Source: Candidatus Harpocratesius repetitus (GTDB lineage: Archaea; Asgardarchaeota; Lokiarchaeia; Sigyniarchaeales; Promethearchaeaceae). Taken from it: a stretch of DNA of 32,000 nt. The stretch lies in the NCBI GenBank assembly GCA_021498095.1, contig JAIZWK010000001.1, forward strand, positions 2,730,001 to 2,762,000, written 5' to 3'. Shown here one piece after another: positions 10,401 through 13,400 of this stretch. Position numbers and translations under genes: made by a program. Each line of letters starts with the position of its first letter. Within the stretch, counting starts at the first letter, position 1. The notes beneath the pieces are model-generated. The model ran no database searches. It was not told where the DNA came from and saw nothing but the letters and a program-made list of their open reading frames with translations.

Positions 10401-13400
10401 ACTGAATCCGAACCAGTATTTCCAGAGCCGTCAACAGCATTTACTGTTAAAGTATAAGAACCTATCGCTAAATTGCTCAACACTCCAGAATCTGTAATTT
10501 CAACTCCGTTAAGTAAAATTGTAACTGTTGTTGAATCTAAATCAGAAACGGAATATGCATAATTGACATCTGAGCCGAATTCAAATACAATGCTATCTAC
10601 AGGTGAACTTATAGTAACAGCAGGAGCCGTGGTATCCACAACTGTGAAATCTATCCTTTCCATAGCCACATTATCATAGATATCTGTTGCATATCCAATC
10701 AAAGTATAGGATCCAGGATTTAATCCACTTAAAGCACCAGTATCAGATATGGTTACCCCATTTAATTTCAATTCAATGCTGTAACTGGATGGATCTGATG
10801 CAGTATATGAATATTCAATGTCTGTTCCAAATTCAAAGCTAGATCCGTTTGAAGGTGTATTGAAATGGAAAATTGGAGCAATAGAATCTGTAATAGTAAT
10901 ATAGACAGTATCTGTTGAAACTTGTCCCCAAATATCCATTGCAATAAATTCATAAACATATTCACCAACTGCTAATCCATCTAATGAAAATTCGAATGAG
11001 TTTGGAGATGATGTCCAAGGAGCAGATTCAATTAAAAATACTCCATTTCGCTTCAAACTATATTCTTGTGGATTTCGATCACTCGCAACCCAAATTAATG
11101 TATGACCGTTTTCTGCAAATTCATAAACATGATTACCTGGTGTTGATGAAAATTCTGGTGCCAAAACATCAGGATCAATAACAAATGCACCATCTGAAAT
11201 ATCTGATTGTTCTGTTAAGGTATATCCCAAATAGGTTCCGCTAACTGTAACTCTTACTCGATAATTAGTTCCATATGGAATTGAATGAGTATTCCAGATA
11301 AAATTCGTAGTGTTTAAACCAGTAGCAATAGCATAATAGGTTGAACCATCTACTGTATATTCTAAAGTCGATTCATAAACAACTTCGGGAAGAGTATTAA
11401 CATTCCATGCAATAGATACACTATCTTCAAATCGCTCACCTCCATTTGGAGATATTAATGAAACAATCATGTTAGGACGATTATCAATTGTCATAATTCC
11501 AGATAAATCAAAGGTTGCATCAGTTGTTCCTTCTATTTCGTAATTTGCCGTAATTTTTAATTTTACTTGATTAGAATAAATTAAACTTGAAGAATTCCAA
11601 TCATATGAATAAACAGAGGCAGCTAATCCAGAAACAATATTAGTCCAAGAATCACCATTATCAGATGAATACGCTAAATCAAAGGAAGTTATAAATCCAT
11701 CAATATCTATAACTTCCCAACTTATAGAAACAATTCCTGAGTATGTAAAACCTCCAAGAGGTGCAAGATAATCAACACTAGGTACATCTGGATTATTGAT
11801 TGCAAACGCAAAATCAGATTGATCTGAATCATCACCTCCATAACCATCATATGCAATAACTCTAACTAAGACAGTATCTTCATCTGAAAAGCCAGAAATA
11901 TCCCAATTATAAGTATTTCCAATTAAATTAGTAGCAATTGAATTCCAAATTGATCCATCAAAAGAATAACCTAAAGAGTATGTTAAACTATCTTCGTCTT
12001 GATCTGAACCCGTCCAAGAAATTTGAATTGAATCAGAATATGTTTGACCACCATTTGGAGCAATAAGGGAAACACTTGGATTTCGATTAAGAACGGTATA
12101 CGTAAATGGATTTCCATATTCATCTGTACAATTTGAATAGTGATTTGAATTGTCTCCTGCTCTTATATACCATAAAACAGTTGTTCCATGATCTTGAGAA
12201 GGAATATTTGCTTCCCACAAATCAGTATCTGGGATTTGTTCCATATCGACATGATAATAAAATGATCCGCCATCAATCGAATAATAAACCATTGCTGTTG
12301 CAATTCCACCTTCATCTATAATTGTAGCTCTTATTCTTGGAGTATCATCTTCGCTTGGACTTGGTTCTACCCCATCAGAATCGAGATAAGGAATGGGATT
12401 TAATATTTCAGGAGGGAGATAATCTATTGTATCATATTCTAAAGGTGCTGAACTTAAGGAATTCTCAGTTACTGTCCTAAAAATGGGTGTTCCATACAAT
12501 GGATCTGTTCCAATTTCAACCATAAAAATATCTGTTGGTTCATCGTCTGCTAATGTATAACTAGTTTGAATCATATTTTCCCAAGATTCGGATCCATGTA
12601 CATTTAAGCTTACAGATACTTCAAGTGTGGTTTCTTCACAACCTATTTTTGCTTTAAGTTCATCCGTTAGAGTTATAGTTAATGATTGAGATAGTGTATT
12701 GGTTGTTGATGAAGATCGAGTAAAAGTATATGAATGACCTCCATCAAAAGTTTTTGGTTGATCATCGAAAACTACTCCTTCATAACCATTTAAAATAGGA
12801 TTCAGATCTTTCCATTCTTGTGGAGCATGAAGTGAGTTAACAATCAGTTCAGAACTTCTTTCAATTCCGTATAATATTTTTGGTTCTGTATATTTTATTG
12901 TTGCATTAAAGTATTCAATTCTTTTAGCTACAATATTATAAACATAAGTCCATCCTTCACCCCAATAAATATCTCCGTATCCTGGACCTATAAAATCAGG
13001 ATCATCAGATACATCTGATGATGTTAATTCATCTGATGTTGTCAGTTCATATTCAAAATCATAACCTAAACTGGCTTCAAGAGATAGTGAAATTTTTTCA
13101 GAAGCACCAACTCCAATTCCAAATAGACTGGCATCTGCACCCACCTCAAAAGTTGCGGTAGCTCCTGCAGTTAATTCCACACCAACGCCTAATGTAAATG
13201 TACTACTTTGTTCAAAAGTGGAACTTGAACCATCTCCACAAGGATCATGAACTATAGTATACAATTCCTGAGGCATTACTTCAGCTCCTGTATCCAGCGT
13301 TTCATCTTGTTGAGAATAAATCCATGTAAAATAAAAATTGCGAACATTTGAAACCTGTTCAGTTCCAGAACCATCATAACCAACCAAAGTAGCAACCACA

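Follow-up and report, generated by a model that had tools for sequence, protein, structure and literature searches.

A family of long-hairpin domains in tethered surface proteins of Asgard archaea, with a possible membrane-active role

The window analyzed here is a stretch of 32,000 nucleotides from the genome of the Asgard archaeon Candidatus Harpocratesius repetitus (assembly GCA_021498095.1, contig JAIZWK010000001.1, positions 2,730,001 to 2,762,000 of the forward strand). On its reverse strand lies a gene for a giant surface protein, built largely of immunoglobulin (Ig)-like domains, that also contains a domain of a different kind at residues 425 to 720, which we call the core. Judged by sequence comparison, the core is a previously undescribed extracellular domain family that is conserved, new to the libraries searched, and without a solved relative. 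We class it as a module with an amphipathic hairpin of toxin style, placed here in a tethered protein of many domains, which is a new setting for it. This hairpin, resembling those that toxins insert into membranes, is its most distinctive trait. The gene is laid out as follows, in window coordinates.

7445 to 14560, reverse strand: surface-protein gene, intact, 2371 codons counted from TTG
14435 to 14524, reverse strand: putative Sec-type signal peptide, residues 13 to ~42, with a basic n-region, a hydrophobic core, and AQA-E, as read by eye
13577 to 14419, reverse strand: three to four CarboxypepD_reg-like (prealbumin/MG-like) domains, residues ~48 to 328, from Pfam
13289 to 13573, reverse strand: Ig-like domain ahead of the core, residues 330 to 424, kept with the core in relatives
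12401 to 13288, reverse strand: core domain, residues 425 to 720, a new family without a Pfam or NCBIfam model
12086 to 12355, reverse strand: Ig-like domain behind the core, residues 736 to 825, kept with the core and preceded by an acidic DSDG-type linker
7556 to 12085, reverse strand: stalk of ~17 further Ig-like domains (Big_7, Y_Y_Y, Big_3_3, Ig_J), from Pfam and repeat analysis
7865 to 10888, reverse strand: twelve 84-residue Ig repeats in exact register, residues 1225 to 2232, from repeat analysis
7448 to 7543, reverse strand: C-terminal sorting/anchor signal, Loki-CTERM-like in sequence, with GGIPGYS (residues 2340 to 2346), a hydrophobic helix, and KKRTNR

The true start of the gene is likely the ATG at 14524 or 14530 (MVMKIKR...), as read from the sequence. 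PF13620 (CarboxypepD_reg) matched the N-terminal part over three stretches (E = 4.5e-18), and the Pfam scan gave a fourth stretch at residues 244 to 311. An earlier note, made from the letters of this DNA, had described a distinct non-Ig block inside the protein, and every string that it quoted was found in the translation of 7445 to 14560. Ig-type Pfam matches are indeed absent from residues 425 to 720 and present in the remainder of the protein. The block is real, but the conserved unit is larger than was drawn there, spanning residues 425 to 720 and flanked by conserved Ig-like domains on both sides; the segment ahead of the core also occurs in the relatives P0009, P0013, P0006, and P0021. 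The string that bounded the block on its N-terminal side, YTIVHDPCGDGS, corresponds to residues 434 to 445 (13226 to 13261). The count of about 18 Ig domains between core and anchor agrees with ours (the 12 repeats of 84 residues plus ~6 others), and so does the IPGY anchor at the C terminus. The note had further placed the core on the tip of the stalk. The ~420 residues N-terminal of the core rule out a position at the tip, and among the relatives examined below a stalk of this length sets the gene of the window apart.

The stalk repeats include a 252-bp tandem array at 9114 to 10589, in which 5.9 central copies with 94% DNA identity encode near-identical 84-residue Ig repeats. A 91%-identical homologue (P0152) has 2023 residues and is thus 348 shorter than the window protein, suggesting that the copy number of the Ig repeats varies. 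This homologue is from Candidatus Harpocratesius, and other close relatives are from Promethearchaeota or Heimdallarchaeota. Only the probable source DNA sample was found to contain the DNA of the core, and no RNA data set was listed as containing it.

No significant match was obtained when residues 400 to 760 were compared with Pfam, NCBIfam, and the PDB sequences. When 1.84 billion cluster representatives were scanned exhaustively with HMMER, 321 of them matched the core at E ≤ 1e-3, of which 53 reached E ≤ 1e-30, and in these matches the core is always part of a larger protein. The family consists mostly of Asgard surface proteins, with distant copies in giant proteins of bacteria of the Fibrobacteres-Chlorobi-Bacteroidetes (FCB) group that use the type IX secretion system (T9SS). 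Among 400 Asgard genomes, 51 carry the core, nearly always in one copy; in the genome of the window it is likewise single, with no paralogue at E ≤ 1e-3. Relatives carry lectin, carbohydrate-binding module (CBM), or beta-helix heads ahead of the core. The distant relatives have 3000 to 4300 residues with LamG, FG-GAP, and T9SS Por_Secre_tail domains and retain both motifs and hairpin, and one of them carries the name of an FCB group bacterium. The related domain that the earlier note had suggested in large secreted proteins of Bacteroidota is therefore borne out by these LamG/FG-GAP giants with their Por_Secre_tail.

The position of the core relative to the anchor sets the window protein apart from its family. 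Of the 43 complete relatives among the top matches, 31 have 129 to 279 residues after the core, amounting to one or two Ig domains and a PGF/IPGY-type anchor. The commonest architecture is core, one Ig domain, and anchor, with 129 to 150 residues after the core in 13 of the 43. The window protein, with 1651 residues after the core and ~420 before it, is therefore an outlier with an amplified Ig stalk. What is now defined is a conserved, unannotated domain that is present in about one-eighth of Asgard genomes, usually once per genome and adjoining a membrane anchor.

The core contains three conserved motif blocks and three long hairpins, which we number 1, 2, and 3.

13226 to 13249, reverse strand: motif 1, HDPxGDxS, residues 438 to 445; P, G, and S invariant, both D at least 90%
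13022 to 13225, reverse strand: hairpin 1, residues 446 to 513; two amphipathic arms of ~25 residues, Gly/Ser/Thr-rich, with the tip SLFGIGVG
12956 to 12991, reverse strand: motif 2, IGPGYGDxYWGE, residues 524 to 535; D530 invariant
12836 to 12970, reverse strand: hairpin 3, residues 531 to 575; two unbroken strands of 19 to 21 residues, predicted local distance difference test (pLDDT) score >90
12548 to 12733, reverse strand: hairpin 2, residues 610 to 671; amphipathic, rich in Ser and Thr, and capped by a short helix
12437 to 12547, reverse strand: C-terminal motif block, DDxxxD / GxDxxxGTxIF / SxPLE, residues 672 to 708; three Asp and one Phe invariant

An alignment of 63 domains shows eight invariant residues in the three blocks, with the consensus ILHDPxGDxS, IGPGYGDxYWGE, and DDxxxDxI...GIDxxFGTxIF...TSxPLE. 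In the window protein the last block reads DDEPTD (residues 672 to 677), DPLYGTPIFRT (686 to 696), and SSAPLE (703 to 708; 12437 to 12454). The invariant Asp/Gly motifs all sit in loops that flank the hairpins, and the N and C termini of the domain adjoin two of the motif blocks in sequence. Because of this order of elements along the sequence, we propose that the acidic loops would come together at the hairpin base as a site for Ca2+, with the links to the flanking Ig domains at the same end. We considered and rejected a thioester or isopeptide domain identity, since the Cys of DPCGDG is not conserved and there is no invariant Lys, Asn, or Gln in the 63 domains.

Structure prediction with AlphaFold gave an all-beta fold for the domain of the window (pLDDT 81.9; predicted template modeling score, pTM, 0.79) and, in a second and independent model, for that of a typical relative of 1020 residues (pLDDT 86.2, pTM 0.80). 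Both models have the same strand layout, running from an N-terminal strand through hairpin 1, hairpin 3, and hairpin 2 to short C-terminal strands. Hairpin 1 has the lowest model confidence (pLDDT 60 to 75 in the window model and 66 to 85 in that of the relative), and its strands are broken. Clear structural neighbors were uncharacterized proteins only, namely, AF_1852 and AF_1574 of A. fulgidus and AlphaFold database (AFDB) clusters such as A0A534LJ78 and I4EKH7; Foldseek matched them with a probability of 0.97 to 1.00 and a template modeling (TM) score of up to 0.51, and several have just 220 to 400 residues. Two Bacteroidota clusters of the ESM Atlas, without assigned function, reached TM scores of 0.62 to 0.64 to the model of the core.

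The hairpins are what singles the core out. The earlier note had described two Ser/Thr/Gly-rich amphipathic hairpins (its string for hairpin 1 begins at residue 452, and EVGADASLFGIGVGAS corresponds to residues 472 to 487), and these proved to be both real and exceptional. The first arm of hairpin 1 holds a strict alternation of hydrophobic and polar residues over 26 positions, which is the longest in the genome. Across the 3357 open reading frames (ORFs) of ≥100 residues surveyed (1.2 million residues, 4.36-Mb genome), the runner-up spans 18, so that the alternation is beyond chance. The pattern is kept column by column in the 63 relatives, with polar positions hydrophobic in 0 to 10% and apolar positions in 40 to 90%. 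Hairpins 1 and 2 are nonetheless the most variable parts of the domain, with an entropy of 2.8 to 3.0 bits versus 1.4 to 1.8 bits for the motif blocks and lengths ranging in the family from 59 to 80 residues for hairpin 1 and from 57 to 75 for hairpin 2. Gly, Ser, and Thr make up 35% of hairpin 1, whose hydrophobic face is mostly Ala, Val, and Gly and whose tip keeps the motif LFGxGxG. In hairpin 3, the tip (12890 to 12910, residues ~551 to 557) carries an N-x-S/T sequon in 51 of the 63 members (consensus YxNGTxxY), and this sequon and the hydrophobic tip of hairpin 1 would share one distal end of the domain. A conserved pattern in a variable sequence, richness in Gly, Ser, and Thr, and a hydrophobic, Gly-rich turn together recall the stems of beta-pore-forming toxins, and they are also compatible with the sheet of a long beta-sandwich.

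Elsewhere in the genome, about 140 kb before the window (contig positions 2587485 to 2589899, reverse strand), an FG-GAP protein of 804 residues ends in Ser/Thr-rich amphipathic hairpins with the tip DLFFFEMG. Its C-terminal part has no Pfam match, and ETX_MTX2 touches the first of its hairpins at E = 0.72. That hairpin was aligned in register with hairpin 1 when compared with the family profile (hhalign probability 13%, E = 0.002), and the protein may, to judge by this alignment, carry a second module of this kind, though a very distant one.

The closest toxins by structure are those of the aerolysin superfamily. We searched both models with VIA-align against 48,161 representative PDB chains, and four aerolysin-family structures were listed, all on model residues 1 to ~160, that is, the N-terminal five-strand unit. 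The window model matched epsilon toxin (1uyj; Z 2.6, 118 residues aligned), and the model of the relative matched LSL (1w3a; Z 2.6, 121 aligned, pore module 152 to 312), BmALP1 (6lhz; Z 2.4, 107 of 152 aligned), and SaroL-1 (7qe3; Z 2.0, aerolysin-like part 163 to 326). Only 32 chains reached Z ≥ 2 with the latter model, and 3 of them are aerolysin-type; on our own estimate that a few dozen of the library chains are of aerolysin type, ~0.03 would be expected among 32. The number listed is far above this expectation, yet any long-strand model favors such proteins. The aerolysin core has been defined as b1, b2-(amphipathic loop)-b3, b4-(short loop)-b5 (PMC3110756), and the order of secondary-structure elements in our core fits this five-strand order, although the four structures aligned with Z scores of only 2.0 to 2.6. 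Long twisted strands are common to both, as is a Ser/Thr/Gly-rich alternating hairpin between strands 2 and 3. The core thereby displays one trait by which the aerolysin family is recognized, an amphipathic insertion-type loop flanked by Ser/Thr-rich strands. Aerolysin-type toxins often have lectin- or CBM-type heads before the pore module (PMC3110756), and carbohydrate-binding-type heads likewise precede the module in the relatives of the core. The core differs in that a further half, containing another hairpin, follows on the C-terminal side.

Searches with sequences, profiles, and language models gave hints of the same kind. Named clusters among the language-model neighbors were Aerolysin, ETX_MTX2, Monalysin BB_PF, Leukocidin, and Toxin_10 (scores 0.83 to 0.92). 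Below the significance threshold, a profile search of the PDB returned CEL-III (E = 0.42) and a natterin-like protein (E = 1.2), both on hairpin 2, and searches of the individual members against Pfam returned ETX_MTX2 in 3 of 63 (best E = 0.019, short of the 22-bit cutoff) and CEL_III_C in 3 of 63. The resemblance of hairpin 1 to an aerolysin-type insertion hairpin is real but weak.

The earlier note had likened the turn of hairpin 1 to the stem loop of anthrax protective antigen (PA), and this likeness did not stand: no PA was found at E ≤ 10 in a phmmer search of hairpin 1 (residues 440 to 520) against all PDB sequences, where the sole match was a Legionella porin (E = 1.4). Binary_toxB (PF03495) was not among the Pfam matches, and PA was absent from the fold listings. 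Only the composition of the turn is alike by eye, being acidic, aromatic, and Gly-rich with Ser-rich alternating flanks, as in the stem loop of PA and binary toxin B. A comparison of the monomer model with toxin folds, which the note had also suggested, produced the weak aerolysin-family matches given above, with PA and the membrane attack complex/perforin (MACPF) and cholesterol-dependent cytolysin (CDC) folds unlisted. MACPF_D3 appeared below threshold in 4 of 63 members (best E = 0.0074), and no MACPF or CDC chain stood among the fold-search matches listed. Perforin-2/MPEG1 has a MACPF pore-forming ectodomain that is held on the producer membrane by a C-terminal transmembrane anchor. Its likeness to the protein studied here would be functional only, as a membrane-tethered pore former acting on an apposed membrane, whereas its fold is that of MACPF with helical transmembrane hairpin (TMH) bundles.

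We tentatively favor a reading in which the core is a contact-dependent, membrane-active module whose base is stabilized by Ca and whose hairpin would insert, in the style of aerolysin, into the membrane facing it; this accounts best for the traits that are most distinctive. Of the two forms that it could take, a true oligomeric pore is the likelier, though in itself rather unlikely, and insertion or anchoring in a membrane with no pore is less likely still. As read from its sequence, the protein would be exported and retained on the membrane of the producer through its IPGY and transmembrane tail. The N-terminal prealbumin-like domains, or the lectin, CBM, or beta-helix heads of relatives, might then bind a neighboring surface, upon which hairpin 1 would swing out and its hydrophobic, Gly-rich tip and lipid-facing side would enter the apposed membrane. 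Should several copies assemble, their hairpins would make a candidate beta-barrel pore. The data show the domain, how it is conserved, its hairpin pattern, its architecture, and the weak resemblances to toxins; calcium binding, hairpin release, insertion, and oligomerization are all steps that we infer. The most specific form of this idea, which we regard as rather unlikely, is an aerolysin-like pore module tethered to Asgard cells (and, in diverged form, to those of FCB bacteria) that assembles on contact and perforates a neighbor for antagonism, predation, or the syntrophic exchange of metabolites.

Several results weigh against a membrane-active core. Taken singly, no toxin-likeness signal is significant. 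Against Pfam, the core gave CEL_III_C alone, at E = 1.5 to 2.5, and no significant match to pore-forming families such as PF01117, PF03318, PF18063, and PF18054. The family profile aligned to epsilon toxin with an hhalign probability of 0.6 to 0.9%, whether the toxin was entered as a single sequence or as a shallow four-sequence alignment; the toxin sequence was that of the natural etx gene of pCP8533etx, for which only five homologues were retrieved, so that its profile is shallow. No structural match to anything exceeded Z 3.3, and true members of the aerolysin family usually score higher against each other. The hints also disagree as to place, those from hidden Markov models falling on hairpin 2 and those from structure on hairpin 1, and the list of language-model neighbors is identical for both halves of the core, so that this signal reflects local sequence style rather than homology. 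Strongly conserved Asp/Gly motifs, such as those of the core, are to our knowledge not typical of aerolysin-type toxins. Those toxins are soluble proteins of ~300 residues, whereas the core lies mid-chain between the Ig domains of a membrane- or T9SS-anchored, adhesin-like giant and, in most Asgard relatives, beside the producer's own membrane. Around the core, 12 Asgard loci (20 kb each) showed no conserved partner or immunity gene; small GTPases, which are ubiquitous, aside, neighbor families were common only to close relatives. Because the sequence comparison gave no significant match and the fold comparison is undecided, we do not file the core as a member of the aerolysin superfamily. A three-copy structure prediction returned no answer (score 0.00) and speaks neither for nor against an oligomer. 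Foldseek searches of the core against the PDB and the viral models of BFVD returned merely Fab, secretin, and ClfA rows with TM scores of ~0.1, which are uninformative, and rescoring with VIA against the PDB gave nothing above Z 2.5.

A static module with an adhesive or structural role is almost as likely as the membrane-active one and is held just as tentatively. The three hairpins would then form a stable, elongated, C2- or Ig-like sandwich with Ca2+ in its acidic loops, the alternation would reflect one buried and one exposed face, and the role would be that of a binding surface (the hydrophobic, Gly-rich finger together with an N-glycan at the distal end) or of a rigid joint, in surface proteins by which the cell adheres to partners or substrates. 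The models are compatible with such a beta-sandwich built of these hairpins, which the earlier note had itself named as the outcome that would speak against a pore former, and both are confident and compact, as their pTM values attest. The setting is also that of an adhesin, with Ig stalk, CarboxypepD_reg, LamG, FG-GAP, fn3, and CBM domains and T9SS or IPGY anchors, and the prior for pore formers among surface-protein domains is low. VIA-align listed Ig-like domains of pilins and of microbial surface components recognizing adhesive matrix molecules (MSCRAMMs), namely, ACE (Z 3.1), SdrG, ClfB, SdrD, RrgB, SpaD, and LrpA, along with the MG-type domains of C3, C4, and A2M and the C2 domains of T. 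vaginalis (Z 2.5), otoferlin (C2A, Z 2.4), copine BON1, and cPLA2. C2 domains account for 5 of the 32 matches of the relative's model and Ig-like adhesins or pilins for ~9 of the top 50 of the window model. Their scores equal those of the toxins, so that the hairpins may simply be the sheets of a long, Ca-binding sandwich. The beta-sandwich of these proteins, with conserved Asp in strand-flanking loops, gave the best Z scores (3.1 for ACE, 2.3 to 2.5 for C2). The invariant Asp in the loops flanking the hairpins of the core, the acidic DxDG-type linker behind it, and the conserved sequon at the tip of hairpin 3 all suit this explanation. It leaves unexplained why hairpins that are less conserved than the rest of the domain should keep a perfect dyad pattern over ~25 residues per arm, and why hairpin 1 has an Ala/Val/Gly hydrophobic face, broken strands, and lower model confidence. 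The sandwich matches are moreover as weak as those to toxins (Z ≤ 3.1) and without sequence similarity, the strands of the core are about twice as long (19 to 21 residues), and no Lys/Asn isopeptide or Cys/Gln thioester residues are conserved in the core.

Two further explanations by analogy deserve mention, and both are much less probable. Hairpin 1 might be a membrane-fusion or bridging finger like those of class II fusogens and fusexins, its Gly-rich LFGxGxG loop inserting to tether or fuse cells without a pore. In such proteins an Ig-like domain, a short stem, and a C-terminal anchor come after a beta-rich ectodomain, an order that would agree with the commonest architecture of the relatives (core, Ig domain, anchor), and the conserved tip recalls the hydrophobic, Gly-rich tip of flaviviral fusion loops. 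Such a role is nevertheless very unlikely, since the ~18 Ig domains between core and anchor in the window protein are ill suited to fold-back fusion, and no class II fusogen, HAP2, or fusexin was among the PDB-wide or viral-model listings, an absence that does not exclude the fold. Least likely of all is Ca2+-dependent self-processing at the Asp-Pro bond of motif 1, which might release the N-terminal head or cross-link it through a new C-terminal Asp, in the manner of the "clip and link" of FrpC or of GDPH-like sites. FrpC-type modules and GDPH sites are known to process themselves at Asp-Pro, and in the core the Pro is invariant, the preceding Asp is conserved in at least 90%, the loop is modeled with a pLDDT of ~93, and the other invariant Asp residues could bind Ca2+. 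This idea would leave the hairpins unexplained, solved self-processing modules resemble the core neither in sequence nor in profile, and the motif is unlike both known types.

We know of little work that characterizes how the surfaces of Asgard archaea engage with other cells. If the membrane-active reading is correct, insertion or perforation by the core would offer a concrete molecular means of studying how cells of the lineage ancestral to eukaryotes interact on contact, and beta-pore-forming toxins would gain an archaeal form that is tethered. Were it truly a pore, archaea would have their first tethered pore former of the beta-barrel type, and the aerolysin superfamily would acquire a new branch. 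Even as a static Ca-binding sandwich, it would still be a new and widespread surface-protein domain deserving a family model. Aerolysin-like genes have been mentioned in Methanosarcinaceae (PMC3110756), and for Asgard archaea our full-text literature searches returned no report of proteins that are aerolysin-like or form pores.

The C terminus of the surface protein, as judged from its short motif, hydrophobic helix, and basic tail, fits the Loki-CTERM/PGF-CTERM type of signal. The same arrangement, with [IV]PG[YF] as the motif, ends 29 ORFs of the genome, often behind Thr/Asp-rich linkers. NF033507 matched the window protein below threshold (E = 0.8, 10.1 bits versus a cutoff of 19.9), and no match to Exosortase_EpsH/archaeosortase (PF09721) was found at E ≤ 0.01 in the single-contig genome (4.36 Mb, 93.6% complete). 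One such anchor belongs to a second surface protein, encoded directly downstream at 3073 to 7191 on the reverse strand (1372 residues), which has Big_7 Ig domains, NIPGF, a helix, and a basic tail; its N-terminal 800 residues, in which Trp, Asn, and Tyr are abundant, have no Pfam match.

The remaining neighbors in the window are unrelated to the surface protein and comprise a GlcD/GlcF-like oxidoreductase pair, a PAS sensor, and radical SAM, GNAT, and PIN proteins. The oxidoreductase pair, directly upstream of the surface-protein gene (14777 to 17750, reverse strand) and probably unrelated to it, consists of an FAD_binding_4 flavoprotein (499 residues) beside a CCG/4Fe-4S protein (485 residues), a GlcD/GlcF- or Hdr-like arrangement. 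At 17955 to 22652 (reverse strand), a protein of 1565 residues is made up almost entirely of PAS domains, with no output domain recognized in Pfam. The two surface-protein genes and the oxidoreductase pair (2000 to 18000) have a G+C content of 0.32 to 0.36, versus 0.24 to 0.27 in the remaining window.

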